Source of the DNA: Botryllus schlosseri
Taxonomy: Eukaryota
DNA: 60,000 nucleotides
Direction: 5' to 3'
NCBI GenBank assembly: GCA_051294905.1
Contig: CM119372.1
Location: 7,380,001 to 7,440,000 of the forward strand
Shown here: piece by piece, positions 5,879-60,000 of the stretch
How positions within the stretch are numbered: position 1 is the stretch's first letter
How the letters are laid out: every line of letters starts with the position of its first letter
Notes under the pieces: generated by a model
What the model was told of the DNA's origin: nothing
Database searches by the model: none
The model's input: the letters and a program-made list of their open reading frames with translations, nothing else
Translations under genes and position numbers: made by a program

Positions 5879-7674
5879 GTCTACAGCAGATCTGGGCAAA
5901 GTGCGACCACGGACGCAACAAACTATCAAACTGTCATGAGGAATAGTAATATATCAAAAGGTCGTAGCATCCGTTGCTTAGCGTATAAAGTTATCTAATC
6001 AGGTCGGTATGGAAACCACTGGCATTCTGTTGCCCCCATGATGTATAGTTAGTTACGTCCTAATGTTTGGTTTCTTAATCCATGTTATTATCGCCGGTGA
6101 CGAGTAAGGTAATGGTGCGCTCCACAGCTGTACCACCAATGGATTCTTCGGCAATTGGACATTTCTATTCCAGGGGTTCTTAACCTTGTATTCGTGGTAC
6201 GAAGCATCAGGGGGTACGAGATGAATTATGAAATTAGACCTATCTGCTTTGGAATATTTTCTGGGCCAATTTATTCAACTGAAAACTAGTTTTCGCCATG
6301 CGCGCGATTTTAGGTGAATATGCTTTTTGAGTTTAACATTGGTATTATCAGAAATTGTGTTGAAAATAGACAGGGGGTACGAGAAATATTATTGAAAGCA
6401 CAAGGGCTACGATCGCTAAGAAGGTCAAGATACAATGCTATTACTATGGCCCAATAATGATTATATTTAAGTTGTTTTTGATCTGTTCCAAATCGAAGGC
6501 AAATATAACGCTGATTTAATTTGACTTTGGCAATGACATGAACAATTGCCTACTTATCAGGGCTGTATCAGAAACCCGGATTAGGCTACACTACTCAAAT
6601 GCTCTGATATCAGATCAATATTTAGTAAATTCTAAAATATTCTACGTATAACCGTGGCACGTCAAATGTAGTACGCTAGCTGCGTATTATACCGCGACAG
6701 CTTTTGCGGTGTCATGATGCATTTGTCCCCATGAATTGCGTCTAGCACTCATTATTTTAGCAAATTATGCCAAGCACAAAAACAATTTTATTCAAATATT
6801 TTAAAATGTGATTTTGTTCGTGCCATGCGTGAATAGTACAAGAGAGAATTATATTTCACGATGTTTGTGGAATGCCTGCGTGCAAGATCGCGTCAAATAA
6901 GGCCTCCTTGGAGATGATACATTAAATACCCCTATTATTGATGCTGCGGCCCGCGGCGTCATCAATAACTAGGAAATTGGCCCACGAGCACATTAGAGTT
7001 TGAGACCCCTGCATTAAACGAAGAACAGGCGGGCTTGTCAGAAAAAAAGTGAGGCGGTAAGATTCGGAGCAGGAGTCAGTGGTGAACCCGTCTTTTTAGT
7101 TTGTGGCCAGCAGGTCGCCGTGGAGTGTAATTGAGGTTGGTATTATGACAAAAACACAAAAACAGACACTCGGACAAGGGCGAGGTTAGCACTGCTAGTT
7201 TCCATCATCAACAAGGCTATTTCACCAAGCAGCGACCAATACAAGCTTTGTAGTATCCTAAATACATTCTAATATATTAATAGAAAAACGTGTCTGTGGG
7301 TTAAAAAGAGTTTATTTACCATTCTTCTGAACCAGGGGCGGGCAACATACGGCCCGCGGGCCGGATGCGGCCCGCTACGGGATTTTTTCCGGCCCGCGGA
7401 CAGTTTCCCGTCATACATGATAATGTGACCCGCGGCCCCAGTCTGCCGAGATTCCAAACTTCTTGCTTAAACGTCAAATTTTAGTGACTGTATGCAAAAC
7501 CGTAACTTCCGCACCCCAAACCCCCGAATTGGAGGGAGCCGAGCTCGAAGGGGGCAAAAATTATTTCGCGAATGTAAATGAATCATGAAGTATTTCTTTA
7601 TAAATTTATGCAATTTTTTCAAAAAAATTTTGCGCTGGGCGCGATTTAATGTTGATAATTAACTTCATTATCGG

Positions 7675-9606
7675 CAACGTTCCCTCTAAGCTGCGCACGT
7701 GCGCAAATGCGCAGTGCTGAAACGGTCTCTGCGCACAAAAAATCCAAATTGATGACTATTTTTTATTCGTTTCGCACTGTTGTCCAAAGGACCGCGCAGG
7801 CGCGCAGACTTGTGAAAATTAGAGGGAACATTGCCAGGAGCAAATACTGCTATCGCTGAAGTCTGAAACCGAGGTACAAGTGCTGCCTGCAAAGGTAGAT
7901 ATTGCGCTCCGTGAGAATTTGCAATCACGTGCGCCTCACGAAAGAGATTTTTCTTTTAGCATGGTCCCGTGCGCGTGAGCGATACTGATATCATTTCAAT
8001 AGCGCAATCTTTTCTGGGAATGGCGAAATAACATGGTTTGACAAAGTTATAAATAACAATGGGCTAGCTCGAAGTTAATCTGCGAGAAACTAACGAATAG
8101 TCTTTTCCGCGTGGCGTGAGCATTGCTTAAGATTTACTGTGCAATTACATGCCGTGAATTTTCGAAGTCATCACTTCCAATCAGGCGAATTTGATCACGT
8201 ACGGTGAGATATGATAATATGCAGAATATGCAAGTACAAGCACCAATATTATTTAAAAATCTATCTCTTTGCAAACGTTTATCGGGAAATGCTACAACTG
8301 TGTGCTGAAGGGCGTTGAATTACATCAGCTTCTCAGCAGCACAAATTTTGGTTTATTCGATTCGTTTGAACGGGAATCTTCCGTTGATAAGGCCATACGC
8401 TTATATTGTTCTTGCTTCAGTCAGACTTGAATATACGTATCATTATATCTGACTCTATGTCTTGATAGTAATGACCGCATATTGCCGGTATTAAGACGTC
8501 ACATCAGTGTTAACGCGGTAGGCCTACATAGATCGCGTTATTGATTTGAAGTGCGTACTCGTGCGTGTATGTCTACTAGTAATCTATAGTAGCCTATAGG
8601 TCACCATTTACACGGTTTTATTGTTACGTCGTAGATTATCGCACAAAATTCCGATTCGCTGTCTATAGTACTTGCGGTTACAGGCGTCCATTCGTGTCGC
8701 TACTAGTATTTTGGCTATAGCTGCTTGCCTGTCTGGCCAACGTTGAGTGAATATTCGCTAATTCTACACTGTTTATACTGACCGCTTTTGATAATGGCAT
8801 AACGAATGGGTAATTTCTCATCTACTCACCAAGCCAAATTAGCAAAAAAGTGCGATTCGTTTAACATGGCTGTTGTCGGGGCATGTGAAAACGGAAGAAA
8901 AAACTGTAAAATTAGGTGAGAGTTTTTCTTTTTCAAGCGATAAAGGTGTGCTTTGCAAAATATGAAGAGGAGCGAAATATGGAAAAGAATAGCGGCCCGA
9001 GCTCGAAGGGGAACCAAAATTATTTCGTGTATAAACATAAATCATGGAGTAATTCTTTGGAAATTTATGCAACTTTTTCAAATAAAAAATAACAATTTGA
9101 AATCGTATACGTCTTAGTTTAGTACGTTTGGGCGATTTCAATATCTTTTGACACGGCAGATAGGAGGACACGAAACAGCATCATGTACCGAAGTCATTAC
9201 TAACGGGTACGTCCGAAGATATATGATTATTATTTAGGGGTCCTACCATTTCCAGCACACCTTACTTGATCAGCTCTACCGGTAAATCTGGTTACGTGAG
9301 CAGAGAGAGGATAAAAATTGTTAGCAATATATATGCAATTCCCGATCACATTGACCGATTCAATCATGAATTATATAATGTTTTCGCGCTTGGCGCATCC
9401 AGGCTATACACCCACTAAACGGACACCCAATACAGATGATAAGTAGTGTCAAAAAACGTAAGGCTCGAGGGGGGTCTGGGGGGCGAAGCACCCCAGAAAT
9501 TAGGCTTATCACCATGTGGGGGGCCTGGTTGCGCACTGTTGTCTATGGGCCTGCGCAGTGAGTTGGCGTGTTTGCGCAGACTCATCAAAAATTAGAGGTA
9601 ACATTG
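7675..9606. mobile_element. hAT element nested in 7333-11063
   Basis: Ends caacgttccctctaa / ttagaggtaacattg; TSD ATTATCGG (7667-7674, 9607-9614); an extra internal right end near 7833. Confidence 0.82.
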
Positions 9607-9846
9607 ATTATCGGGTACCCTTGCCCCAACAAAAATACGCATGATTTATAGAAATGGACACTTCGGCATCGGCCATTACCGTGCCCCGACGCACCAAGAC
9701 ATCTGAAGTTATAGGCCATGATGTAACATGCGAATCCGAGAAATGTGCCAGAAAGATCAGCAGCGAGAAAACCTTGACAGAAACCTCGATGTATATATAT
9801 ATACATTATACAATTACAATTAAATAGTATATTCATATTGAAATGA

Positions 9847-9880
9847 ACCCGAATATTTTCGGCTGACACTCGTCAGGGGT
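9847..9880 (-). ncRNA. Minimal type I hammerhead ribozyme motif (inverted copy)
   Basis: Exact reverse complement of 10027-10060. Confidence 0.8.
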
Positions 9881-10026
9881 AATCGTCAGCAACTAGTAGA
9901 GAATTGGAAAGAACATTGTATATCAACAATCGTATCACAAAATATGACGTCACCAGCAGTCATATTTTGTGATACGATTGTTGATATACAATGTTCTTTC
10001 CAATTCTCTACTAGTTGCTGACGATT

Positions 10027-10060
10027 ACCCCTGACGAGTGTCAGCCGAAAATATTCGGGT
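10027..10060 (+). ncRNA. Minimal type I hammerhead ribozyme motif
   Basis: ACCC-CUGACGA-G(UGUCAGC)C-GAAA-AUAU-UC-GGGU: stem I ACCC/GGGU, intact core, palindromic stem III loop; predicted cut after C10056. Confidence 0.8.
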
Positions 10061-11088
10061 TCATTTCAATATGAATATACTATTTAATTGTATATTGAAG
10101 TTCTGTACCTCCAAGAAGCTCTTCAATTATACAATTATATCTACATGTTTAAATGTCCATTGGCGCCTAAATGGCTGGCGCCGAATGTTCCTGTCCTGGC
10201 GCTCTGAACCTCACAAGACAAATGCCATACGGCAGGGAAAAATTATTAGCTAGTAAAGAAATATCAATTTCAAATCGTTTGCGTCATTTAGTTTTGTAAG
10301 TTTGGGAGATTTCAAGCAGATAGGAGGCCAAGAAATAACATCATGTAACGAAGTCATTATACCAACGGGTCCGCCCGAAGATGTTTAATTATTATTTAGG
10401 GGCCCTACATTTTTCAAGACACCTCACCAAGCTCTATTACCGGTAAATATGATTACGTGAACAGAGAGAGGATAAAAAATGATAGCAATATATATGCAAT
10501 CCCCGATCATATTGACCGATTCAATCATGAATTACAGAAATTTGTGCGCACTTCGCTTATTTAGCGTTTAGGGGGCCAATATCAACATTTTTGGGGAAGG
10601 GCTGACGTAGTGCTGTTACGTTCCTGACTGTATGTTATTATATACGTGTGTTCGCAGCATACGAGAGTGGAGCTTACGCGTAAGTTCGTCGAAGCGAGAA
10701 GTCTTGCATTATCGGCATTTGCGCTGTACTCAACCCTAATGAATTGATATCTTGGTAACTTTGGAATTGGAATACCGGGCTTATCGAACGCCTTGAAATC
10801 TTAATCAAGGATTGTATCGTGTGTTAATTGATCCGAGAGAAGCATACATGGAGGCGCCTGCTGACAATGCTGTTCTCAAATCTCATCTTCGTCATTATCG
10901 GCGAGAAATGGCTTTGAAATGACATTGCTGTCGCTTAAATACATTCATTAAATACGACTTATTCCTTGTATATGTGGATAATGTATCGATTCAGCAATCC
11001 GGCCCACCAAGTACCTAATTTTCCTATATCCGGCCCGTCGACTGGAGAAGTTGCCCACCCCTGTTCTGAACTATGACGACGAAAAAAT

Positions 11089-16367: not shown

Positions 16368-16834
16368 CTATCTCTTCCTTTGCGCCGCGTCCCCCGCGCC
16401 CAGAGGCTGCCTGTCGTTATTAAATCCGTTGACCTTATCGCGCCCACTCCCGTAGCGTCCGCCGCCACGTCCGTACCCTCCACGTCCTCGGCCCCTACCG
16501 CGACCCCCTCGTCCGCGACTGCTCGGGTGGGGTCCGCCGTGGTCGCGGTCGCCCCTATGGCTTCTCTTGTTTGGACCCGCGCTTTCCCAGGGTTTTTCGT
16601 CGCCCTCAGATTCGTCGCTCGGGGCGCTTTTTTCATCCGGGCCCGCCTCGCCGTTCACGGCGGACGCTTCGGGGTGTTTCTGGGTCTGTTGCGGGCGCGG
16701 TTCCGCGGCCGAGGCTTCCTCGGCGGCTGCAGTGTCTGTGCCGAGTTCGGTTTTGTCAGTCTCGCTCATGGCCGCGGGTCTGCCGGCCGTTTTCTTCCGG
16801 AGCATCTCGGCGTACGACAGTTTTTTCCCGGCGT
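16368..16834 (-). CDS. LARP4: LARP4 terminal exon with KLSYAEML motif and RGG tract
   Basis: ttttctacag acceptor; LARP4 KLSYAE motif; stop TAG at 16368-16370. Confidence 0.92.
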
Positions 16835-19800
16835 CTGTAGAAAAAAACAACACGTCTCGTCGTATTATCAGTGTTGCGCGCGTCCAATTAGGCGATCAGC
16901 GACAAGCGTGTTGCCAATAAGCGAGTTTCGTCTGCGCACAATGTTAACGCGGCGCGGTATCCCGCCGAGATGATCGCGAAATTAGGCAATTGATGGCCGT
17001 GAACTGGGCAATCGTCGCTGGCCTGATTTACCGCGTCTCCAATAATCCTAGTTCAGCTGGCTTGAAGAATCGCATCTGCGATAGGCCCGGTGCGCACTAT
17101 GCCATCGCTGGCATGCACATTTGCTCAATCGCATCGGCATTGGCACGGTGCGCACGATATCATCGCTAGCTCAACTATCGCGTCTAAGGCCTAGCATGCT
17201 TCGTCTCCTATCTCTCGATGGCTTGAAGACAATGCGGTTAAGTGTATCCTTATGTGCGATTGTGATTAAAGACATCGCGAAACTGAAGGACATCGAATGT
17301 CTGCAAATAGTCCGTGCGTACAGTACAATCACGCGTAATTGATTTCCGTTAATCCTTAAACTTAACCCTCCTCAGAAGATGTGTGCCAAGTCGAGGCTTG
17401 AGTTATAAAAGACGAGAACGGTCTGAGCCACCTGAAATCGGTGTCATTATAGAACAGATTCGACAACAACTCGGGACATTTTGACTCACGCAAATCGTCG
17501 CCGAGGCTACGTAATACGCGTCGATGAGCGCGCGCGTTTTTAATTGTTCACTAGAGATCAGGAACTCGCTAATTGACAGCACTTCCGGACGGGTTGGCAA
17601 TCTTATCATACCCGCAAGTTCGTCAACACGAGGAGATTGTATAATGTATAATCATCATTTACGCATGGAGTTAACCCTAATGAATTGATGCTATATTAGT
17701 AAAATCGGCCCCGCTCTCTTTTTTTATTTCGGAAAGAACTGTAGCTAGCTATAATTCCAATACTAATCTAGCTCGGAAAAGCTGAACATTTCCTAATTGT
17801 CTTACCAGTGTCGGCAGTGGGCACAGTGTTCTTCTCGTTCGCGCTCCCCTTGGAAGGTTCCGCCACGGTCTGTAACAACAACGATTAGTTTGCAGGGAGA
17901 TTACATTACATTAGAGAGCACCGAGATAAACTTTGTACAGACGCATGAGAGGATGTTGTTCAACCTTGTACAATAAGCCGGGTTAAAAAGGTACGTTTTT
18001 CTCAACTTTCACTGGCTGCTTCATAAAATTGTTGGATTGCCTAAAACAACGATGCACACGAAATTTAGTTCAATTCCAACCTTTACAAGCTTTGCTAGTC
18101 AAGAATAAAGTCTTGGATTCATTACATAACAATAAAAAAAAAATTCAAATTTCACTGCCTACTACATGAAATTGTTAGGTTGTTTAAAAACGTACATAAA
18201 ATTTTGACCAGTGAAAAAGGAGCTATTGCAGTAGAAAATCTTGGATTCCAAAAATATAGCATTTAAGGTGGCAAATTCTTTCATTATTTGTTATAAATTT
18301 AGCCACTGTCAAACTAATATTTTATTTTCGAACAGTCCTATCGTACAGAGTTCGTACGAGGTTCTGATTTATTTTTTTTATAATTCTGTCATTTCCAAAC
18401 GCCACGAGACTGGCGCTACAGCAGTCTTCCAGTCAGACAACCCCCTCGACCTGGAACTTGTGAATGAGAGGCTAGCAGAAGATAACGCGAAATGACAAGC
18501 ATGTGGTGTCACGTGTCGGTCGGCAGGTAGGCTGCGTCCAACTAACTTTTTTTAGCACGGGCCCTAAATTAATTTGGGTGGTCGCGTGGGTCCCTGAAAT
18601 TCAAGGTACTCACACAAAATTTGAGTAAAAATTTGAAAATCACCCTATCCCAGTGGTTCTCAAATACTTTTTTACCGCAGACCGCTAAATTTTTTGGGCA
18701 GTTGCATGGACCTCTTAAATTCCAATGTACTTCCACAAAATTCCGACTAAAAGTTTGGGAAGTTGATCACCAGAAGCAAAAACGGTCATCATTTCCCTCA
18801 ACGGCACCTCATTTACGTATGAACTAGCTGCTCTCCTCAAGGTCAACTCAGATAAAAACAAGCACATATTTAATAAATAAAAGACAATGCGCTTTTATAG
18901 TTGTAATTTCGACAAATTGCTTAAAACTGGTCCCTCGACATGGTAAATAAAGTCAAAAATAAGCACAGATTTTATAAATAAAGGACAAAGTTTAAGTTAG
19001 ATAGGTTACCGTTGTAGTTTCAACATTAGGCTTTCATGGAACGTTTAAAACTAGTTCCTTGTCACAATCAATCAAGTCAAAAATACGCACAGACCTTAAT
19101 ATATATATAGACAAGGTTCAAGTTTTATAGTTTACTGTCGTAGTTTCAGCAGTTAGCTTCCACGGAATGCCTAAAACTAATACACACACCCCAGTGTAAG
19201 TAAGAGACTTTCCCTATCCCATCCACAAACCGCCCCGAAACCACACTGACCTTCTGGGGGCTGTCGCTATTCCCCTTCGATTGCTTCTGTTGCGATTTCG
19301 CGGGCTTCTCCGCCTTTTCGGTATTGCGTTTTTCGGCGGGCGGTGGCGCCGCCGGCCTCCGCTGGTCCGGCGTCTTTGAACTTTTGAGCGCCGGCTTCGC
19401 CGGGGCATTTGCCGGTGGCGGGCCGGCCGGTTTCTTCTCGACCGGACACTCCGTTTTTGTTGCTGGCTCTGAAAGGCGGCGGGGGCGAGTGACAAATAGC
19501 AACAGCGACTTATACTCATAGCTGGGGCTGAATTGAGTGTTTCGAGTACTTAAATCAGGTATTAATCGACAATGATTTGAGTTGTGAGCACACCCCTTTG
19601 CGCTAACTGTTGTAATATCGACGAGATTGATAGTTTGTATACTGTTTTAGACACCGTGGAATCCCTGAAACCTTGATTGATACTCGTGTATTGATGCGAA
19701 CAATTCCAGTCGAGTAGCGTCAGACGTTTTTTCAAGTACTAACATCATAGTCTCTTCGCCGCAAACAGTAGATGTATCAACGAGAATTATAGTTTGAATA

Positions 19801-22800
19801 CCATTTTCCGTCGTGAAAGCAGTGAAATATCGCACGTTGGTTGGAACGATTATGTGTCAAATCGCGGTCGACAATGAAATAAGTCTCATTTCTCTTCTAA
19901 TGCGAGACTTAAAAGTGTTATATTTCAACTTTAAAAGTCCATACTGTTATGACGACGCGAGTGACACTGCACTTCTCCATTTCACCCCACTCTACACGAC
20001 ACTATGGAATTAAAAAGAAAATAAATATTATAATTAAAATTCAAGCTTGAATCACAAGTCAAATCAAAACCACGATAGAACAGGTAATTCTAACGTCATC
20101 GGTCATCGTATTACAATTCACAGATTAAAAACTGGGACCAGACAGCCGGCACCATACGTCAAGTAAGAGGACAGAAACGCGTCCATCAGCGAGGTGAGAT
20201 TTTCCACCGCAAAAACTCGCAGAGATTACAAAAAATGCGACAGATTAAGATAAAGCCTGACCGGCACTCCGTCAACGCCACAAGCGGTTATACATCAACA
20301 AACATTTCTCCAATATACATCAACAAACATGATCACAAGGTTTACAAGTGCGCGCGACACGGTAATCGGCAATGAGCGATGTTTTCAAATGTTGGCTGTC
20401 GGGCAGAGCAGCATACCGTTCGTTGCAACACCAGATAGAGATCTTACTGCTTTGTTGACCGGGAACGTTAACAACAAACAACTTGAGTACGGCACGTAAA
20501 AATATAGAGGTGGACACGACGATTTGAGCACACGAATCCGAATTGAGTTTTAATTCTAACAATTCAAGACGAGTAAGGGAGATTGTTTTTGGAGCATTGA
20601 AATTACACACTCCCGGTCAATAGCAGTTAATTTGTCAACTAGAACTACGTTTTCAAGAGCTTCTCGTAGGTACAGAACTTCGATATACAATTATTAGTGT
20701 ATTTATATTAAAATAAACCCGAATATTTTTGACAGACACTCGTCAGGGACAATGGTCAGCAACTAGTATGCATATATATTCTATATCAATGGGCCTCAAC
20801 CTTTTTGTCTTCGCGGACCCCCTTTGGACCGCCACGGACCCAACCCGGTCCCCCTCAAGTTTTCGTTCCAAATTAGCTTAATTATCGTGCAACCCTCATC
20901 TGTCTCATGCAAATATCGATTGTAGGCTAGTGATAAACAGCCACGAAATGACTCTTGAAAATAAAATCACAATATACGTAGAAATTGGGCAGACTTATAT
21001 TATTTTGAAACGAATTTTGCAGCTGTATTTACGAAATCAAAACATCTCATTTCAACTAGCTAGCCACTAAGATTTTTCAAGAAGTCAACTCAAATTTTAA
21101 AATATAGCATGTCACACTTCAAACTGGACATCATGTTATCTGATTCTATATCAGTCCGTGGGAAGCCTGGCAGTGCGCATAGCCCACACCACTGTACTTT
21201 TCCGTGTCAACAAGGCATCAAAAGTTTGCTGCAGTCTGGTGGGCTTTGAGGTGAAGGTCATTTTGCGGTGTTACAATTTCAATCTTCAACTGTTCAGCAT
21301 CCCGACACGACAGATTTCATTATACCGGACAGCAGCAACGATTACACAAAGTTAGAAACAAGGCACTGAACTGCATTGAGTGTAAGAGAGACAAGCCGTG
21401 TCAAAAGACGCAATACGTAATGGGCATACAGATATTGAAAATCTGCTAGTACTTCACGGCTATCTGCTACCAAATAGTGGTGTTGTTTACTACTTTGGCA
21501 TTGTCTTGGCTGTCGAGCTACCATAACGGAACCCTCGCCATTTCAAGAAGACCGTGGATGGCATTCCGTCATATGGCCTGTATATGCAGTGCGCCATATC
21601 CTACGTCTTCAATATCTTGTGATTCTATCACTTGTTGGCATAATACAAATTGTAATTGAGGATATTTGATATCATCATTTCAAGTGCTTCCATGCATGTA
21701 TTGTCATTTGTAAGTTACATGTCAGTGTGATTTAAACAAGAATAGCTAAATCAATCATTCTATATATTTAAAAGCTTACTGGTAATAATCTGACGAATAT
21801 TGGTAAATGCTGCTATTCGATCTGTTTCTAGAACGGGCACCATGTTGTTGACCCCTGCTATATTCTACTCAATTATGGTTTCCACTGTGTTAGGCTGTAA
21901 ACTCCGATTGGTTGTGTTGTAGCATGCGTGGAAGCATCTGTGAAATCGTGATCAACCCACAGCATCGTCAAAAAGTGCAATGAAATAAGTATAACAATAT
22001 GGTTGAAATAAATACCCAATCATTTTTATTGTGATGTAGAACACTATATTGTATTCTTTGTGGTCGCATGAAAGGTACATATTTGAACTTTACAGTTTGT
22101 TCATAGTGTTGTGACGTCGTATGCATTATACTCGAACACTCGACTCACAGTCAAAATCACTATTCACGAAGGAATCAGTCAGTTACAAGATTTTTCCCAA
22201 CCCTAAAGAAATACTCAAAAACCAAAAACACGTCCGCGATAACATCAGCGCGCAGTTACCCGCAACGAACGCCACCATACCTCTGTGTTCCGGTTGCATA
22301 GGTTGTTCTTTCTCGTTGACGGGATGGGGGCTGACGGGGGACGGTTGCGTGGGCGGCAGATTGGGCACGATCTGGGCCGCGGGCTCCAAATTCATTTTCA
22401 GCGAGTTTTTGTAAGACTGTAAACAGAGAAGGGTATGAGATTACGATACGACGACGGCCGCAGTGGCCATGCATATGTAAATAAAAGTTTCGATTTGCTC
22501 CACGGAAAGGTTCAGTCGACATAGGTTGATGTATTGACTCTTGGGACTGACAACAAAAAGGTTTCTGCGACTGAAAACATAACGTCCTTCTGGGATTGTA
22601 GTTTGTCACGATGCATTCGACGATAACACAAATAACACCGCAGCGAGCATGAACGATTCTTACTCCAACCTTGGGCTGATAAAATCGTACAACATGCCTT
22701 ATAAGCTAGGCGGATACGTCCGCAGAAAACTGTGATATCGGTGTCATGTATTGTATACGGACGTACACCTGTGAGATTGGGACAGTGTTAGAGAAACATT

Positions 22801-25800: not shown

Positions 25801-28800
25801 GTGCCGGGCGTCCGGGCTAAAAGCACTAGAAAATGACTAGGAAACGTTGTGTGCGTGATTTCAGCCGGCAATTGATATGCGTCAAATTTCATTGCACATC
25901 GACTCGAGACAGGGCTAGCTACGCGTGAAACCCATGCCGAATCAGAGACACATATTAGTTAGCGAATAATGCGCTGATCATGCCGCGTTTCTTGTAGAAA
26001 ATGAGTAAATTCAAATCGCAGCCTATTTAAATAGGACTGCAATATCAGCAATCACTTAAAGTTAACAGAAATAGCATACCGGCGTCTTCAACGGAGAACA
26101 TATTCGTAGTTTATATGCTTGCTCGCATGTGCAATGCATTCAAGAATCGAAAGAACTTAGTGACCAGATTACATCATTACTAGTAGCATTCAGTGAAAAT
26201 TGCTTTGACCAATGAGATTTGAGAAAACAGTATACTAAAACTGAATGATCCTTCTCGATTAGGACATTTCAAAATAGACCGCTTTTAAAAGTGCATGGAT
26301 TCGTTTTGCCTATCCCAGACAGTAGTTGATGACAAAGGATTGTTATCGCAAAAACATAACTTTGTTTAATAACCAGTGTTACTCATGGAATAGGCTATTA
26401 GCCCCATAAGGCCACCGTTAGTAGTGGTTATGACAAACAAACACAATAAAAATCTTCAAAGAGATTGGCCTAAGCACAATCATACAACGTATCAATCGGC
26501 ACTCAACCTAAATCAACCATACGTGTCAATTGACATATACACAGGATTACACCACATAAAGTGCAGCACACTCACTCAAAGGCAGCATTCTGCACAGTGT
26601 CATTGAAATTTTGCCCCTTGGCCGCATTGTTATTGATGTCGCTCAAGGTACCGGAGCCCGCTTGGCCGTCGGTAGCGTCTAAAAGCAGAGCACGCGTAAG
26701 AACTGCGCCTAGCGTCACAAACGTAACCAGTAGGGTTGTCCATAATTTGGAAAATCTCTAAAAAGATGCGTATCCATGTCTCATTCTGTAGATTATTGAT
26801 TAAAAACGTCAATGAACTTGCAATAAGCTCATAGGAAATTCGTTAACATTTGTCTAAATGCGTTTGAAAGTAGCTGCCGTAGAGTGGGCGTGTTAGCGAC
26901 CATAGAACGGCGAGAAGACTAATAATCACGAAATCACGTCTCTTGATTGGTTTTTCAGCTATGCTTGAATGATCACGACCACAGCGGCTTGCTGATTATG
27001 TGCTTTTATTAGTCCAAGGAGATCGCTAACGGCAATGATTCTGTAAGCGCATTGTACATTGGTGATTTAATAATAAAATGAGACATCGGTTCATTGAATG
27101 TTTTAGTGTTAAAACTAGGTAGCGATAGGTTTAGAGCAACGATAGCCTCTTACAGGCATGACAGAGGTGAAACAGCGAATGATTGTGAACTTATAGAACC
27201 AAGTATAGATCCAAGAAATACCTATATGATATGCTTGAGATTACGCCAATTGGTTCTGCTTTTCTGGGTGCAGGTATGGCATATTAGACATCACCAAACT
27301 GGTGCAGCGTAACATGTGAGATGGATGCTGGACACAATCCTGTATGCTCAGAAGATATGTGGACCGACTAGGTAGCCCACATTGGATTTCTGAAGAGTGT
27401 AACTACCACACCGCTTCAATCCATCCTTTTTTGTCCATGTCTGATTTGATTCAAGCATTAGTCGTTATGCAGCCGGAATGATCTAACATTCATTAAGGAC
27501 ATGCTAAGCAGTGCAAGCAAACTGTCTTTTTGCTGGCCCTACCAGCATAGTCTGTGCTTATCTTTAGACCTCTTTGCCCGGCATCATTGATGACTTTGAC
27601 AGCACTTGCGGGTATGATTCATTATGCTGCAAGAATCTGACAAGTGGCAAGCGTAAACGACTGATTCATCCAGCCCTTACAGCATTCAAGACTTCAATTA
27701 TGTACCATGACAACAGCCTAATAAGATCAGACAAAGTAGTGTCAATGTCAAGCTTTATATTTGTATTCAATGATGGTACATCCCCTCTGAAACTAGAAAT
27801 TCGTTTGCCACTTGCATGAGCGCCTTTGCACTATTTTTTCGCATATTTTTGTGCTTTCCATCAATGAAATCAAGGCATACAGGCTACAACGGTTACCTTC
27901 ACAATAAGCCATCCAGTCATGTATTTAAAGATATTGTGAAGCAGCTGTTCTCAGTTCATCATGTCTTCCGTAACTCAACATGTTCTGAATTAATCCTAAA
28001 TCATTAGTTGCGGACCAACCTACAATCCACGTACAGAATCACCGCCGTCAGCCGACTCCTTGACCAGCTGATCAACAAGCCGCCAACCAGACATGGGGTG
28101 ATTACTTCGGGAATGTAATCGATTGCGATTACGATTACTTCTGAATGACACGATTACGATTACAGCAAAATCAGGAAGTAGTCGATTACGATTACGATTA
28201 CACTGGAAAAGTAATCACGATTACTCACGATTACATTTATTTCGCATCTTAAAAGTTATATTGGAAGACAATATATGGATTGCGCTGAAATGCCTAATGA
28301 TATAACAACTTCCTTTAAGCAAGATGCGACATTTGTTTGCTACGTCTTAAAGTATCCATTGCCCATTTTATAGAGGACGATTTATCGCACCCAACGATTT
28401 GCATTCTCGCTACGTCCACATCTGCCGCACCCAAAATTTCCTAATAGGGTGGAGACCGAGCTCGAAAGGGAATCGAAAGTATTTCGTAAACCAACACAAA
28501 TTATAGACTATTTTCGAGAGATTTCATGAACTTGAAAATTGTCTACGAGCATCGCGATTTAAATATCTCTATGTAGCTTGATTTTGAAATACATATGTCT
28601 CCTCAAGAAAAAAAAGCATGCATAATTTATAGTAACAGGCATTTAGGTGCCAGTAAATACCGCGCCACGACACACCAACAGACATATGCAGTTTCGGCCA
28701 ACATGCGAATCCACGAAGTGTGTTACTAATGAAAGCCATTGACCGAAACGTGCGGTATGTGTCCATTGTCAATAGCCGCGCTGGGTGATCCCACAATGCA

Positions 28801-31800: not shown

Positions 31801-34800
31801 TCTCTGTCGTGTGAATATATTCTTCATAACATATTGAAAATAGAAGCCACTCATGGTTAGACAGTGAAGTTTTTGTGTGCAGAACTGCCAGCAACCCTTT
31901 GTCACGATTAACAGTATTGTGATCTATGCGGAATTTGTACACGCATATCTAATGGACTATGCATATGTTCATGCCATCAGTAAACATTTCACTGTTCTGG
32001 AAACGTTAGCGCTAAAAATCGCCTTTGTCAAATGTTATCAAGTAATTATAATTTTTTGTGTATGTCAAATCATAAATGCAGTTTGAAAAGATTGTCAGAT
32101 ACTCACGGCAGCCGGGTAAGAGTCGTGCACGCTAATCGGGCCGTTACTGTAATGGTGCCCGCCGTCGGAATTGCTCCTGCTTGTGTAATCGTGTTGCTGA
32201 TTGCGAGACGCGCTGTACCGCGGATGTGGTATGCCTTGAAACGTAAGAACAGACATTGTCGTACACCGCGCCGGTCGGAGACACGTAAAACAGGTGTGAA
32301 TTGAATTCTAATTGCTAACGCCGGAACGACAAACAAAGTGCATCAGGTATGCAATCGACCGACCGGGCGGTAAAACAAACTCTGACCAGAAGAGAATCAA
32401 CAGTAAAGTTGAGTCAACATCGCAAACAAAAGATTAATCGCGACAGCCGATGTCAACTGCCAATTACACACAGACGACGGAATTATACTTTACACACTGA
32501 CCATCCGCCCTGCCATTTAATATTGAACCCAAGTAGTAAGCATAGGCGATCACTAAAATATAATTCCTGGTCGGATATCGTTACGTACCAACTGTGGCGA
32601 ACATACCGTTTGGTCAAGAAACGACTCACTGGTAACTTGACTGAATGAATGCACGATATCACAGACACCATCTAGGAGTGAGCGGGATATCGAACTATAT
32701 CATCTGTTCACAGGCGTGATCAACAGAAGATTTCGTTGTCCGTGCTCAAGTTTTCAAGTTGAAAGTTCAACCCGCGTGTACGTCTTACAGCCAAGATCAA
32801 CAACGGCTAATTTCTGTACCACTACCAGTCAATTGATCATCACGTCATGGTGTTTCGACATTGACACTATTACACTGGGCCAATATTCGTCCAAAATCAA
32901 TGACCTGGCTAAATTTTCAACATTTCAAATATATATCGGATTGGCGACATGGGTCGGCCTATTGGTACATCACACCATTGCAACACAGCCTTATGTCACC
33001 ACAAGGTGCGAATCTTGGAGAAAATGTTGATAATGGAGAATTTTTACGACGATACCATGTGAAGAATCCAAAAAATGGGGTGTAAGCCCAACGCACCATC
33101 GCACAGACAATGGATGTCGCTATATACTTCAGAAAAAGAAATCACTCTACAGTAACGCGAGTACAAAGCATGAAACGCACCTTTCTTTTGAAACCTCGGA
33201 CTTATGTCGTTGTCGTAATGATTCCTGTTTCCGTACCGGTATCCAGCACCGTTCGGTATGCTACCGTTCTAAATTAAAGTGGAACAAATGATCAGCACAA
33301 GTAGATTGGCAAACAAAATTTGAGTTGGATGCCAAACAAAAGCATGTACGGGCACGACAAAGTCAACTTAACACGAACACACGTGGCTTCCTATATCTAC
33401 GCCTTGATGTCTTGGGTGCCACAAGTGCGGACAAAGATAAGCCTCATACGAACAACAGAAAGTTTGTTCGAGGCTAGGGAGCTAGGAGCTGCAGAACTTC
33501 ATCTCAACTCGAATAGTACATGATCAATCAATTCACAATCCTTGTTTCCATAGCCATTGTGAAATTACTTTCGAATTGCCGAGATTAAATTTATAGATTT
33601 ATAAATTTATCGGACACACAAAGTCAAATTTCAGTTTTATCAAGCCATGCGCCGAACATGCTGGGGTTTACCAAGCGTCAGCTTGACCGCACCACTACAG
33701 TTAGACCAGAGATTCTTAAACTGGGGTCAGTGAGCCCCCTGAGAGCCCGCGCACCAGTTTCAAGTGGTCTATCAAAGGCCAATGAAAATACAAATAAATG
33801 CTGTGGATATCATCGCATTATGATGTCACGTGCGTCTGTTACATCACTATTTTAACGTCGAAAAATCGTATCAGTTAGGATAGATGTGAACAAGGCCAAC
33901 TTGGGTCATGAATTAGTTTCAGTTCAGTCGAGTTGATTTCATTTCACGTGGCTCTCTCATCAATTTTTTTGCGATATGGTATGAAACTGAATATTTTCGG
34001 CTGACACTCGTCAGGGGTAATCGTCAGCAACTAGTAGAGAATTGGGAAGAACATTGTACAATGTACATCAACAATCGTATCAGAAAACAATGACGTCACC
34101 GGCATGATATTTCGAACATACTATTCAATTGTATATTGTTCTGTAACTCCAAGAAGCTCTTCAATATAATTTTAATGCCTCGTGTCCAATTAGTGCGTAT
34201 CAAATTATCCCTTGGACTTAATGACAATTGGGGTCCCCACACGCACCAAAAACTAATTTCATTCCATTTTAATTTCATTGCGTTGTGTCCAATAAGTGCA
34301 GATGAAAAAAAGTCTATATAGGCTAAATCACAAAGTGGGTCTACACACACACACACCTAAAAACAAATTCAGGGGTTCACGATAAAAAAAGTTTTACGGA
34401 ACCATGAATCATATGGAAACCAGACTAGCCAAACATAAATAGCCTACTACACCCACCGATCTGTTATGCTTGTTGTACGACGGCTGACTCTTATAAAACT
34501 GCTGCCCCGCCATCATCGTTGTGGGATACAAATTTTGCTGGGCCGCCATCGGCATGGTCTGCACGTAACGACGGCCTTCCGACACCTGAGTGTTCACTGC
34601 AAAGTAACCGCGCGTTAAACGACCAGACGTAAAGAAAATCCTTGCCGTAACGTACCTTGCAAATGCACGAACCGTCCGTCGGGTGGCACGCCCCTGCCCG
34701 GTGGATAATCACCTGTCATGTAACTGCTGCCTACAACGTTACCTTTTCCGTGATATCCTCCCCTGTTTAGAAAAAGCCTTGCTATCAACTTTGACTTGTG

Positions 34801-37800
34801 TTAAAGGGCCACTGCGCCCTAAATATGATGTGGTCTCAGATTGAAGTTGAAGAGTGTGAAAGAAAATTTTGACAGCAGCCGTTTTCCTCAGAAAGCCACC
34901 AAAATAAAACTTTGGTTAAAATATTTTTCCAAAAATACAACAATCCACTCATCGATATCTGTGGTTCTTGCAGTGTTGTAATGACTTGAGTCACGATTTT
35001 CTGACGACTCGACTTGACAAGAGTCATTTCCTCAAAATACGGAAATGATTCGACTCGAGTCAATCTGCGTATTGACGCGACTCGGACTCGAGTCATTGGG
35101 CATGACTCGAGACTAGGACGGCCAAAACCGACATTTCATTGTAATTTCGAAGAACAGTGAAGTAACCACCCTACTGGGATTTCATCTATTGGTACTGGTC
35201 TTGAAAATGCGTCCTGAAACTGCTCAAAGTGACGAAAATTAGTAGAAATATATACTATAATATTATTAATTCGAACCATTCGATGTCACCGATATATATA
35301 TATATAACGTGGGTTCAACAAGACTTTAACTGGAAACTGAGCAGTCAACGCAACGACTTGGACTCGAGTCACAATACCATGACACTGACTCAACTCTCTG
35401 CGGACTTGGACTCGGTGGTGAATTAAAAATGACTCGACTCGACTTGACTTGAATCAAAACTACGAACATGAGAATGACTTGTGACTCGGAGCCTTGTGAC
35501 TTGGTTGCAACCCTGGGTTCGTGACCACTCGTGATAATGATGGCACGTGTTCCTTCACCATTGCATGTTCTCGACAGTAGCGAGCAGTCACCCAGTGTTG
35601 TTAGCTAGTCCGGAAAGCGTAGCACTGAAGACACGCATGTCACAATTTGGCAAGTGGTCAATAATGATGCGTGCGCAGAGATAGACGGAGTGGAATTGTA
35701 CATTTCGCTGCAGTTCAGTATGGCTGCTTTCCGAAAAGATTGATGGCCGCCGCCAAAATGCTTTCCATACTTGCGACTCTAATATGAGACTGTGTGCCAT
35801 ATCTAGAGCGCTGCGCCGCTTTAGACAGTAGGAATTACCTTTTGTGTGGAACGTAGTTGCCGGGAGGTATGTGAGCAGGAAAAACTCCGTTCGGAGGGAA
35901 GCCGTGATTCGCAAACTGAAAAAGAGACGGCGTCAGACAGCGTTACGGATGCGGATATTTAAAAAGTCGGTGACAAAGTTAAAAGTGAGACGTCCGGGAA
36001 GTACAAGACCGTATTTGTGACCGCGGTCGATAACATCGAAAACGCGGACATATTCAAATATACCGTAATATATTCCGTGACTAGAGGTAGAGAAATTGAT
36101 CCGAACACTCAATGGGTTTTTAATTTATCCCAACGTCATACTAGTGCAGTGGTTCTCGACTTGGGCTAGTCACAATAGCTCACTTGACGTCAAGACACCA
36201 GACTTGCACTAACTACCCATTTAGTTGGTTGGCGGTGTCAACTAACTAATGTTATTTTGAGTACCGGTAGTTCTAGTTGCAAATGTAGAAAATTGAGTAT
36301 TTCTAGTTACGGATATTGTAAAGCGAGCGGTTCTAGTTTAAGTTACACATTTGAAAATAATATCAGTTGCGACACAACTAGAAAGCACGTGTTGTCATTT
36401 TGCGCGAATTGAGACGTCGGTGTTCTGTTGAATGTTTGTGAAGCCATTACTAGCTCAAAGTCATCACTACCAACAGCGGAGTAGTCGAGGGGTGTCTTTT
36501 TCGGTCGAAACCTCTCCCATTTCGAACTCGGAACCGCGTTCTTTTGAAACGTCGAATCGATGTCTGATATTTCCGAATTAATGCGATGCCTGGTAGAATG
36601 AAATCAAGTCGAAAACGGTCCTCAACATTCAATGACTTGGGAATCCCTACGCCAGAGGTGGGCAGTCATTTTTCTGGGGATGAGAAGCAGTAAATATGTT
36701 GGCCGGCTAAGTCATTGAGTTTGCGCAATAATCTGCGATGTATCTGTTCTTGAATGTCCTTAGTTCTAGTCGCGGGTTTTGAAAAGTGAGCGGTTCTCGT
36801 TGCGAATTTAGAAAAGGGAGTAGTTAGTTTTTTTAGTTCCATTTGCGAGTTTTGAAAAGCGAGTAGTTCTAATTCTAGTTGCGGATTTTAAAGAGTAGCT
36901 CTAGCTCTAGTTCTAGTTGCGGATATTGAAAAGTGAGTAGTTCTACTTCTAGTTGCGCTTTTTGAAAATCCAGTACATTGAACAAGTCTGCAAGACACAC
37001 ACCGTACTCCTACAGCAGATGTCGAGCTGATTTGCAGTAAAATTCATTACAATCTTTTGCTTTGTGTGAAACTGAAAACCATGTTTTTTCAATGGTTTTG
37101 TTCTTTCAGCACTGCTGTTGACGCACGGTTCACTTATGACCGGTATGCCGAAGTAATGTGATATGCAAAAAGGTTGCGTGACTAGGCGAAAATTTTGAGT
37201 TCTAATTTTGTAGCTTATTGAGGTATTTCAATATTGCCCTTTCCCCGGTTCAAGAACCCAGCTGCTATAGCGTAGTTGTTATGCAAATTCCACGGACAGA
37301 AATTATGCAACGTCTAAAATCTACTTTCCATAGAAACTAATTTTGCTCAAGGCGCTACTGATGAAACAAAGCAGCAAGCATCGCGAGTATCCTAAACGAC
37401 TTTTTAAGAGCATGAAATATCGAGTCTTCTAATCAATCAATCATAACGAGCAAAAAATAGCCAACGAGGCTTATTGTACACGCGCTTACAAACGCATGTG
37501 ATGTAAAACCAGCATGATGAATTGTTAAGAACCAAACGCATCACAATGAAATACAAGGACATTTGCAGGGAAATCTCGCTTGCACGACCTCATTTCTGGT
37601 TAGTGTCTGTCCTGAGATTACTACTGTGTTGTGACTTGAAATACAGTACAGCGTGCTGCCTATTAGTTATATGCAGAACCTAAAAAGGTCATAAGGGACG
37701 ACGTCATTTATACAAGCAATAAACAAGGGGGCGTTTGGCGCCTGGATTATTGGCCAAGAGGGCGCTGGAAACACCGACTTTGAAAAAACTGGAACATCAA

Positions 37801-40800
37801 TATGAAAAGCTTACCATATCCGGATACCACGCCTGCCCGTTGCTGCCGGGCACCACGTACACTTGCTGGGGTGGCGGGGCCGCGGTGGACACGGTCGAAC
37901 TGAGGGGACTCGTCGTGCCGGGCGGCGGGGGCTGCGTGGGAATCGCGGCTATGTACGGCGCTCCCTGTGCCCCGGGCCCAAACGGGGTCCCTGCCGCCGA
38001 GGCGGGAAACACCGCCGGCGAGACGTACGGTGGATTCATGATCTGTGAAACAGCAAGTGACGTAGTTGGCTTGCATGCGCCACGCATCAGGCAACCAGGG
38101 AAATTGGCACAGGTACATTTGGTATTAGAAATGTTATAGGGCAAGTTTTTGTTGCACTTAAAACCTGAGAAAGTTGCATTTATTTTTTAATTTTAACAAA
38201 AGTTGCAGCAGTTGCATTTTGACCACATTTTGCTCGGTTGACTAAAAAAAAGGTCAATTTTGCGGCACAGCTCCCGAAATACCCGTAAAAGCGTTACTTC
38301 GCTGCTGATTTACGGTGTTTCAGTCGAATTTGGCCGTGTATTCCGCCAAAATCGAAAATACTTTCATGAAAAATCGAGAAAGTTGCAAAATGTTGCAAAA
38401 AGTTGCATGAAAAAAATGGACAATAGTTGCAAAAAGTTGCACTATAAGATTCCTTCAAACAGCTTAAAACAGCATTCTACATATCTTACGAGTATTTAGG
38501 AAGCTGGCGGAAGCTGTAAAAAAAGTTGCAAAAGTTGCAAAAACTTGCCCTCGTCCATTAGTATTACAAGAGCTATGCATCAACATCGTATCAATAAATT
38601 AGAATATCAATGTTCCAATCAATGCGAGGGAGAATTATGATATAGGGCAGCAGTCATCTACCGGTAGTTCGCAAGGAGTTCGTTACTGGTCAGCGAAAAG
38701 CTTTTCGCATGTAGGTCAAGATCACTAATAAAAATTCACCACAGAGAATCAAGTTAAACACTCTAATCCAGTGGTTCCCAACCGGTGCGGAATTCATTGG
38801 TTTCAGATGGGGAAATAGGCGCATTTGTTGAACACTATATGCAAGGATAGTCTACATATTTACGGAGACACATGCGCGGTTGCCGTTACAAGTTAACTGC
38901 TCTGGAATGTATGTATCAAAAATTAAATTGAGTGCGGTTCACAAAAACTCATATGCACCTCTGGATAACCAATCATGGCATCACAAACGCATCCAGCATG
39001 ATGTGAAATGACGCTTTCGCTAAATTTCGAGGGTTATCAGTATAGGTTCACAATACGTTTCATGTGTCAGTTATAGGCGTGTACTCAAACAGGCAAATAG
39101 CTGCCCCGCAATGACAAAAGTTGAAAGGAAATACGACGATAGTTTTGGGTAGTGGGGAATGGAGACTCGGAATAAATCTCGAGTGGGGAATGACGAAAAA
39201 AAGGTTGGGAGCCATTGCCCTAATCAAAACATGTGTTACTGCCTTACTCTGCACCCTCTACTGACCTCATATTGTACGAGGTGCAATCCGTTTTCAACGT
39301 TGAACATTTGTGATTTTTAACAATGGCCCGCGAAAAAATTTCATTTTGAAAATGGTCCGCAGAGCATAAAAAGGTTACCGGCCCATGCTATAAGGCACTT
39401 GCCGGCTCCTGAGCCTGATCCTAACCGACCCCTAACCCGAACGCAGTAACACGTGCATACCACGTGCAAAATTCACCGAGTGATGCATATCAAATTTCAC
39501 GTTCATATTCAGTGAAACATTCATTTCCTAATTTATAAACACAATATTGGCGCATGATTTTCATTACAATAATAGCTGTTACATGCCATCATCGAGTGCC
39601 AATGAGTTATTACATCCCAAATTCATCAAGTGCCAAATTTTCATTGACATCAATTGTAAGAATATATAAATATTTAAACGCAATGACTTTCTGCGTACCT
39701 CCTAGCAAGAGTTATCAGCCCCTGAAGGCATTCAAACATTTTAGAACTTGAGATGCCAAATTCACTGGTATAAACACATCGAAACACTCCATACCTGTCC
39801 TGGTATCGCCGACTGCGGCTGCGGTCCTTTGGAATGAAGTGTGGACATGTACTGCGTCTTTGACTTGATTCGTGCCTGATCGCAGAGTAAAACAACGATT
39901 CTAAGACCATTGGCAGCAGGATTATAAAAGGTTAGTTCCTTACCATGATGGGTTTGCCGAGGAAGTTCTTCACTCTTTCGCGGAGATGCCGGTACGCCTC
40001 CTGGGCGTCGTTCTCCGACTCGAAAGTCACGTACCAGCTTGTGTTGGCGGCGAATTGGCACGACAGAAACTTTGGGCAATCGTCACCGTCGAAGAGACCC
40101 TTCACACTCTGAACGAGATTTCAGTCTTGTTCAATCGGTGTTCATTGGTTATCCCACAGTGCATTTTATAGGATGTCTGAACTTGCCTTCTAGAGTCACG
40201 CGAGAGGTTCTCAACCTTGCTCTAGTCAGGTCGGGACAACAAAATTGAATGGGTGACTGCATGGGGCCCCTACTATGATTAGGTCAGACATATTTAAAAA
40301 CTGCACAGCCGGGGCTAAATTCTACATAGCCCATCCTCGAATTTGGGCAGCTGATGACTGAAAAACGGTCATCGTTGTCCCTCAGCCCTCGTCACAACTT
40401 GATTACCGGTTGGAGTTCAACCTTATTAGTTTTTATATCGTCAGTGTGGCTATTGTGACTCGCGGCGAGCTAGAAAGGGACACAAGTCAAAAATAAGGAC
40501 AGATCTTGTAAACAAGGACAATGTGGTCAGTTTTGAAGTTCACAGTTGTAGTTTCAACATCGTAATATCGAGGACGCCATAAAACTAGTCCGCGTGCCCC
40601 AGATTAAACAATTTATGCATAGATTTAGTGTCGGGTGGATGCAATATTAGATATTAGCTTTGGCACACTGAATTGATCCCTTCAAAAGGTGCTGTAAAAT
40701 ACACCGTAGATATATGCAATATGCTTCCGTAAAACAAGAAAATTGATTGGGGAACTGTCAATTTGATTCATGATCATTACCAAGGGAGATCTGCCATGGA

Positions 40801-58964: not shown

Positions 58965-59338
58965 AAGCTAATGAAAAGCTAATGCAGCTAATTAAGCTAA
59001 GGAAAAGCTAATTAAGCTAATGAAAGGCTAATTAAGCTAATGAAAAGCTAAGTAAGCTAATGAAAAGCTAATGAAAAGCTAATTAAGCTAATGAAAAAGT
59101 AAGCTAATGAAGAGTAAGCTAATGAAAAGCTAATGAAGCTAATTAAGCTAATGAAAAGCTAAGTAAGCTAATGAAAAGCTAAGTAAGCTAATGAAAAAGT
59201 AAGCTAATGAAAAGTAAGCTAATGAAAAGCTAATGAAGCTAATTAAGCTAATGAAAAGCTAATTACGCTAATGAAAAAGTAAGCTAATGAAAAGTAAGCT
59301 AATGAAAAGCTAATTAAGCTAATGAAAAGCTAATGAAA
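58965..59338. repeat. Minisatellite of GCTAATGAAAA / GCTAATTAA / GCTAAGTAA units
   Basis: About 370 bp of tandem 9-11-bp AAGCTAA-based units. Confidence 0.95.
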
Positions 59339-59593
59339 CCAGCGAATGTAAAAATGAAGCCAATGAAGCAAGGAAGTAAGTCCAGGTTAGTATTTCGCTC
59401 ATATGATTCTGGATGTATCAAATCCGAAATTTTAAATCCAAGTTTAGAATCTGGATATTCGATTCTCAATAGGGATTTTTGAATTATGATTGCAATAGTG
59501 CCAATTCAGACTTAACTGCACCCTGCAAACCGGAAGATTTGACGGCACCGCCAGGTTTGTTTTGAGGTGTTCATGGTGTGTCTCGACCAGCAC

Positions 59594-60000
59594 CGTAACT
59601 GCCGCACCCCAAACCCCCAATTGGGGGGGGCCGAGCTCGAAGGGGGCCCAAAATTATTTCGTGAATTAGCATAAATCATAGAATATTTTTTGAAAATTTA
59701 TGCAATTTTTTCAAAATTTTTTCGCGCTGCGCGCGAATTCAAGTAGCCTTTTATCTATATTATTGGGTATTGGCCATTACCGCGCCACCACCCACCAATA
59801 CATACAATCAAGACATGAGACTCCAAGAAGTGTGCCAGAACGATCGGCAGCGAGAAAAGCTTGGCCGAAAAGGTCTACGCCCTTATGCAGACCGAAGACT
59901 TCATTATATATACAAAATACATATAGGTTTAATTGTCCATAGGCTCCTAAATGACTGGCGCCGAATGTTCCTGTCTTTGCAATCTGAACCTCACAAGACA
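59594..60000 (+). repeat. Copy of the internal module of the 7333-11063 element family
   Basis: Collinear similarity to 7501-7650, 9665-9790 and 10145-10222. Confidence 0.8.

Follow-up and report, generated by a model that had tools for sequence, protein, structure and literature searches.

We analysed a window of 60,000 nucleotides from Botryllus schlosseri (contig CM119372.1 of assembly GCA_051294905.1, positions 7,380,001 to 7,440,000 of the forward strand), in which all positions given below are counted. The window holds an insertion with two inverted-repeat arms of 134 nt each (9815-9948 and 9959-10092; 100% complementary, 10 nt between them), a tail of 33 nt on one side only (10093-10125) and a 12-bp target-site duplication, ATTATACAATTA (9805-9816 and 10126-10137). 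Alignment of the arms and of the duplication confirmed the inverted repeat, tail and direct repeat reported in the original prediction. The duplication cannot be extended on either side, its left copy overlaps the inverted arm by 2 nt, and the 12-mer occurs just twice in the 60-kb window: the chance of a common 12-mer, estimated from random pairs of zones, is 1/20000. The features of the insertion and its host repeat are as follows.

9805-9816, plus strand: left 12-bp target-site duplication, which starts ATT and shares its last 2 nt with the inverted arm
9815-9958, minus strand: inverted, 5'-truncated, tail-less element end, made up of the 134-nt arm and the 10-nt spacer (9949-9958)
9959-10125, plus strand: direct, 5'-truncated element end (end of the pseudo-LTR, pLTR) with tail
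10071-10124, plus strand: putative first 18 codons of the RT and GIY-YIG frame of a Penelope-like element (PLE), ended by the element's end
10093-10125, plus strand: one-sided 33-nt tail, lying between the inner 3' end and the outer 3' end of the family
10126-10137, plus strand: right target-site duplication
59763-60000, plus strand: host-repeat paralog without the insert, a proxy for the empty site

The two element ends are unequal in reach. The 10 nt between the arms had been described as a spacer; the length stands, but the segment is no neutral loop, since in reverse complement it matches what the element has further upstream. In 4/4 runs the loose ends before 9959 finish in this reverse-complement sequence; the 10 nt therefore belong to the element, whose left copy reaches 10 nt further. 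The same sequence is carried by a second copy of the element in the window (copy 2, below). The left copy has 10 nt that are absent from the right, the right copy has 33 nt that are absent from the left, and a minority base at 10085 is common to both arms. A palindrome, TGACGTCA, at 9945-9952 adjoins the turn, and at the left junction target and element are alike over 9 nt, with a 6-nt tandem repeat in addition. Within 9801-9825 this repeat is CAATTA twice in tandem, as if a primer had slipped back once; alternatively, slippage may have accompanied a duplication of 6 bp.

The host is a dispersed repeat, with more pieces at 7499-7652, 28422-28722, 55444-55660 and 59592-60000, and a direct repeat of ~290 bp (9084-9373 and 10256-10534, 80% alike) flanks the host region. 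The paralog at 59763-60000 had been taken to show the empty site. It does align across the site without the insert (49/61 aligned letters on the left, 71/83 on the right), but it is diverged, has a different AT-rich stretch at the site itself and is not an empty allele. In run X1, 147 contigs of host-repeat paralogs pass from the right flank into left-flank-like sequence; among contigs aligned to 9940-10270 neither a true empty allele nor a contig spanning the whole insertion was recovered.

A long inverted repeat free of mismatches, enclosed by a short duplication, and the lack of a spanning contig among those aligned would suit either a DNA transposon unit of MITE-like or fold-back type or a fold-back artefact of assembly. 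Both are highly improbable. The inverted repeat is not terminal, there being 33 nt of tail on one side; other copies of the element are differently shaped and have variable breakpoints; the sequence is that of a PLE end with a hammerhead and an ORF start; and an artefact would not yield a target duplication or ends typical of the family. MITEs and fold-back DNA transposons were rejected as a class for the one-sided tail and for the absence of a fixed structure across copies.

Elsewhere in the window, both ends of the segment 5294-5855 match 17996-18176 in opposite directions, as in a MITE-like inverted-repeat element, and a frame of 155 aa at 41058-41525 (minus strand), with no Pfam match, presumably resembles the C-terminal end of a LINE protein. 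Exon-like frames occur at 16368-16895, 19146-19646, 37723-38139 and 42046-42435 (one RGG-rich, two proline-rich), with no Pfam family assigned to them; these possibly belong to a host gene, in which case the insert could lie in an intron or close to a gene. A Pfam search with six ORFs of the window gave nothing for 5/6 and one weak match, to DUF4100. A minisatellite at 58965-59337 is built of units resembling AAGCTAATG and shows higher-order periodicities of 100 and 151.

The right end of the insertion links it to a protein. The peptide read from 10071-10124 aligns to residues 1-18 of proteins of 828-850 aa (P0159, 12/18; P0166, 11/18; P0016, 9/18), the comparison proteins having been reached via a metagenome locus (L076), then by a profile search and then by a search with P0016. 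Against 40 PLE N-termini the peptide scores 47, a value attained by 0/867 other ATG peptides of the window and by 0/1000 shuffles; this null test covered the 40 N-termini, and the closer P0159 and P0166, which came via P0016, stand outside it. With P0016 omitted the score is 33, inside the null range. P0016 itself contains RVT_1 (E 5e-9) and a weak C-terminal match to GIY-YIG (E 0.003, below the cut-off), and a custom GIY-YIG-like pattern is present in 18/40 of the comparison proteins. Of the DNA variants listed within the frame, both common ones (10080 and 10085) leave the protein unchanged, but a rarer one (10078) does not. The exact N-terminus of the family was found in none of 256 long proteins, an N-terminal search with P0003 returned only P0003 itself, and upstream of the ribozyme no frame resembling a PLE C-terminus was seen by eye.

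A related arrangement is found at L076, where a ribozyme of the same form lies between a GIY-YIG-type C-terminus and an ATG that matches the N-terminus of P0004; relatives of the L076 protein are 814-825 aa long and contain RVT_1; the L076 frame itself gave no Pfam match. At our locus the element end (pLTR and tail) overlaps the start of an ORF for RT with C-terminal GIY-YIG. PLE pLTRs, taken together with the tail, have been found to include the initial 12-22 codons of the ORF (PMC3846280); what is new here is that, judged by sequence comparison, the final 54 nt encode residues 1-18 of an RT and GIY-YIG PLE protein. The Penelope-like origin proposed earlier is thereby borne out, the 3' end of the insert being the start of a PLE coding frame. 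The proposal of an ORF-less, retrozyme-like family was not supported: an ORF start inside the insert disfavors an ORF-less retrozyme, and a search for tandem arrays, suggested as a check, found none of the family in the 60-kb window.

Two further copies of the element lie in the window.

33981-34164, plus strand: copy 2, older; an inverted part plus a direct tail, with the same outer end and different breakpoints
20652-20768, minus strand: copy 3, simple, 5'-truncated and decayed; 100/115 aligned letters

Copy 2 retains the reading frame, with an in-frame loss of 3 nt. In copy 3 the GAAA box is broken and the frame interrupted. No clear target-site duplication was found for either. A fixed 5' end common to the insertion and copy 2 was considered and rejected, as copy 2 runs ~12 nt further.

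Read data were examined for 4 of 24 listed runs, aligned to 9940-10270. They comprise 111730, 43870 and 7794 contigs plus 4416 RNA reads, with most of the depth on the element; although these contig counts are not copy numbers, the family is very abundant. Since 20647 contigs of run X1 are at least 99% alike, part of the family is young, as had been proposed. The insertion itself is a recent one. Exact patterns of the family had no match in the metagenome or viral contigs scanned. Among the matches listed, downstream loose ends cluster in 4/4 runs at 10079/10084 and at 10123-10126. At 10079/10084 the clipping is premature, being caused by frequent variant bases (10080 and 10085), and the real inner end appears to lie near 10089-10092; two of the listed joints also fall there. 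Copies of the family stop, then, at two places ~35 nt apart. Joints to the opposite strand show many differing breakpoints (14/15 joints among those listed). Because breakpoints vary between copies, the fold-back is made anew at each insertion and is not a trait of the family.

All of the window copies (3/3) have less than 200 nt per arm and the window contains no PLE coding body, as expected if the template were a short non-autonomous derivative (a retrozyme-like or pLTR-only RNA) that the hammerhead cuts to unit length and a PLE enzyme moves in trans. Retrozymes have been proposed to derive from PLE pLTRs (bioRxiv 10.64898/2026.07.22.740005), and pLTR sequences are reported to suffice for mobilisation in trans (PMC3846280). 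Such a template is nevertheless improbable, given that copies continue upstream of 9959 (621, 468 and 132 contigs and 284 reads), that copy ends do not coincide with the predicted cut site at 10056, that no pile-up of RNA ends is seen in the 4416 aligned reads, that the window has no tandem array, and that the end carries an ORF start in which the common variants are synonymous.

We consider it very probable that the insertion consists of two 5'-truncated Penelope-like ends, placed head to head within one target duplication and derived from two start points ~35 nt apart. Since neither arm is contained in the other, each was likely primed on its own; separate priming is, we infer, the simplest reading of the unequal reach of the arms. 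The arms end at the two end clusters of the family and the duplication starts ATT. According to this model, an enzyme of the element would cut both strands of an AT-rich site, 12 nt apart, and thereby generate the 12-bp duplication. One strand would be primed at the outer site, giving the arm with the tail, and the other at the inner site, giving the arm without it; both cDNAs would stop after ~145-170 nt and be joined at their 5' ends. The hammerhead would be cargo from the pLTR of the parent. Within a tandem transcript of the parent, cleavage would likely proceed by dimers formed through the palindromic stem III, with a pseudoknot of loop II holding the dimer ribozyme in place of a long stem II.

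The 9-nt likeness and 6-nt tandem repeat at the left junction would suit annealing of a folded-back cDNA, and the arms are identical, with a palindrome adjoining the turn. A single cDNA might have primed itself at TGACGTCA (self-priming has been proposed for PLE palindromes; PMC3846280), been copied as a hairpin, annealed through the 9-nt likeness and later lost the central 10 nt. This sequence of events requires an extra deletion, as neither arm contains the other; moreover, the turn offers no pairing for priming, and the inner end fits the family-wide cluster of ends rather than a site-specific homology. A metagenome locus, L089, carries its tail on the inverted arm, which also speaks against it. 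We regard fold-back of one cDNA as quite unlikely and favor separate priming of the two ends. L089 is an independent head-to-head pair, with arms of 109 nt, a ribozyme on each strand and a 10-bp duplication; its segment 209-600 is a PLE insertion of another family, in which the last codons of the ORF lie between the arms.

Each arm contains a hammerhead motif, for which the features are these.

10027-10060, plus strand: type I hammerhead; stem I 10027-30/10057-60, core 10031-37, predicted cut after C10056
Within it, plus strand: 1-bp stem II G10038-C10046, GAAA 10047-50, palindromic stem III 10050-55
10017-10023, plus strand: strand complementary to loop II (10039-10045), a candidate 6-7-bp pseudoknot
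9847-9890, minus strand: hammerhead together with its upstream pseudoknot strand, core starting at 9876

A descriptor for type I hammerheads, run on both strands of the 60 kb, gave two matches (core 10031 on the plus strand, 9876 on the minus), in agreement with the earlier expectation of a cut after C10056. The claim of two hammerheads holds insofar as each strand has one core, but the cores lie on opposite strands, so that no transcript carries both. The motif has the CUGANGA core, GAAA, UH, a 4-bp stem I and G10.1-C11.1; stem III, AAUAUU, is palindromic, as had been noted, and unstable. It is located in the pLTR near the ORF start, the core (10031) and the ATG (10071) being 40 nt apart. Rfam, put forward as a check, returned no match to a hammerhead model, either at the gathering score or at E up to 10; its sub-threshold miRNA matches were dismissed, as they reflect the hairpin alone. 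Among only ~9 listed sites with DNA variants of at least 5%, none falls in the core. Folded in isolation, the motif is predicted to adopt a wrong structure in which loop II pairs with the core. Self-cleavage is a prediction from the motif.

The unusual part of otherwise ordinary PLE biology is stem II, a single base pair with no extra base after A9. A very short stem II had been given as the established PLE form, a statement at odds with the alignments of PMC4209133 (Fig. S3), where helix II has at least 3 bp (3-8 bp) in 56/56 motifs; the usual description of minimal PLE hammerheads (3-8 bp in helix II and, as a rule, an additional base following A9) does not fit this motif. The original prediction overlooked a pseudoknot that likely props the 1-bp stem. 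Loop II (10039-45) is complementary over 7 nt to 10017-23, and by sequence complementarity a pairing of 6-7 bp with this upstream strand is likely: the predicted duplex energy is -9.6 kcal/mol for loop II with the upstream strand vs -4.7 kcal/mol for loop II with the core. The upstream strand (10017-10024) also repeats the core heptamer 10031-10037; it nearly does so in L070, and does not in L066, L076 or L089.

A relaxed pattern that left the upstream strand unspecified was run on 59/64 parts of the metagenome and gave at least 120 matches in at least 119 loci, besides 2 loci in viral contigs. Where stem I has at least 4 bp, 5/14 matches (4 loci) show six Watson-Crick pairs at the same offset of 13-14 nt, as compared to 1/106 of the remaining matches; 115/120 of the metagenome matches were judged chance-like and set aside. 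In an alignment of seven motifs, which represent only three sequence types, 3/7 knot pairs change on both sides, the compensatory changes being found in PLE relatives from the metagenome, and knot pairing falls from 92% to 20-44% when the strands are slid. The covariation score beat 500/500 shuffles, but the count of two-sided pairs did not, 348/500 shuffles reaching it. With only three sequence types, and with two knot pairs broken in the decayed copy 3, the knot is likely but unproven. The ribozyme closest to that of the window (L070, 33-78; 80% over 55 nt) lies at the beginning of an animal-like contig, where no PLE frame adjoins it.

It is possible, although we hold it doubtful, that one group of PLEs uses a hammerhead subtype absent from the alignments of PMC4209133, in which a 6-7-bp knot of loop II with a strand located 13-14 nt upstream of the core takes the place of a stem II reduced to 1 bp. 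Because such a knot would also prevent loop II from pairing with the core, it may serve as a folding switch and speed up dimer-type ribozymes. The word pseudoknot does not occur in the main text of PMC4209133, and the literature searched yielded no dedicated paper on a PLE hammerhead pseudoknot. If the subtype is real, then descriptors that require a longer stem II would miss a whole group of ribozymes, and its members may be fast, in contrast to the minimal PLE motifs, which are sluggish. Should the pseudoknot and its one-pair stem II be confirmed, and not be covered by Lunse et al. 2017, they would constitute an additional subtype of ribozyme, one that might account for the useful cleavage rates of some PLE hammerheads.

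At the locus itself the ribozyme is predicted to be silent. The insert folds into a single hairpin (-240.8 kcal/mol, predicted), in accord with the earlier suggestion that transcription from either strand would sequester the ribozyme. Whichever strand is transcribed, the antisense arm precedes and the RNA carries just one sense ribozyme, which makes dimers in cis impossible. In RNA run X23 (~6% read, fragmented) reads are about equal on both strands, in a library not known to be stranded; 99% continue into unrelated sequence, none covers 10132-10143, and there is no pile-up of ends. These reads look like read-through of dispersed copies and are weak evidence on cleavage.

Taken alone the insertion is of little import: it is a clean textbook example of PLE integration. 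The family, being young and very abundant, would make a good data set for a genome-wide test of the mechanism.

Opposite-strand pairs of hammerheads, 100-700 bp apart, are described in metazoan PLEs (PMC4209133, Cervera and De la Pena 2014). The motif resembles these in its core, G10.1-C11.1, 4-bp stem I, palindromic stem III and placement as an opposite-strand pair in a truncated PLE, and differs from them in the 1-bp stem II, the absence of an extra base after A9 and the likely loop II pseudoknot. Pseudoknots between stems I and II, and 1-bp stems II, are known from other hammerheads (PMC3088659, Perreault et al. 2011), although the 1-bp example there is a type II ribozyme from a metagenome and not a dimer-type PLE motif. 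Like the non-LTR retrozymes of animals (PMC7229834; bioRxiv 10.64898/2026.07.22.740005), the insert is a short, AT-rich, hammerhead-bearing repeat related to PLEs. Retrozymes, however, form head-to-tail arrays of non-coding 150-450-bp units with canonical hammerheads (PMC7229834), whereas the insert is dispersed, head to head and equipped with an ORF start; assignment to them was rejected, the window having no head-to-tail tandem units and the insert carrying PLE codons.

By every feature tested the element is a member of the canonical endonuclease-bearing (EN+) PLEs: it has an adjacent inverted 5'-truncated copy, a 33-nt tail at one end, two end clusters and a 12-bp duplication in AT-rich DNA. 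Insertions of canonical PLEs often comprise an inverted 5'-truncated copy and a tail of 30-40 bp at one end (PMC8557442, Craig et al. 2021), the anatomy to which the inverted copy and short one-sided tail had been likened, and correctly so. Pen2a_Av, for example, has a 9-bp duplication, a 31-bp tail and a pLTR with the first 12-22 codons (PMC3846280, Arkhipova et al. 2013). The insertion shares with these elements the head-to-head copies, one-sided tail, short duplication of an AT-rich site and initial codons (18 here), and departs from them in that both copies are cut to ~145-170 nt, with no RT or endonuclease body.

A close mechanistic comparison is with Poseidon of Anolis carolinensis (PAc; PMC11167929, Frangieh et al. 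2024). In vitro, PAc cuts and extends both target strands with a preference for ATT, and reverse transcription starts at two sites, the tail corresponding to the distance between them. PAc, too, has a hammerhead at the junction of pLTR and ORF and no RNA-seq ends at the cut site (PMC11167929). The two systems differ in detail: the ATG lies inside the PAc ribozyme and here 14 nt past the cut site; the start sites of PAc are >110 nt into the ORF, the ends in our family ~20 and ~55 nt; and PAc is reported to prime without homology (PMC11167929), whereas the left junction here has a 9-nt likeness to the target. The insertion nonetheless fits the two-start-site mechanism, in an unrelated animal.
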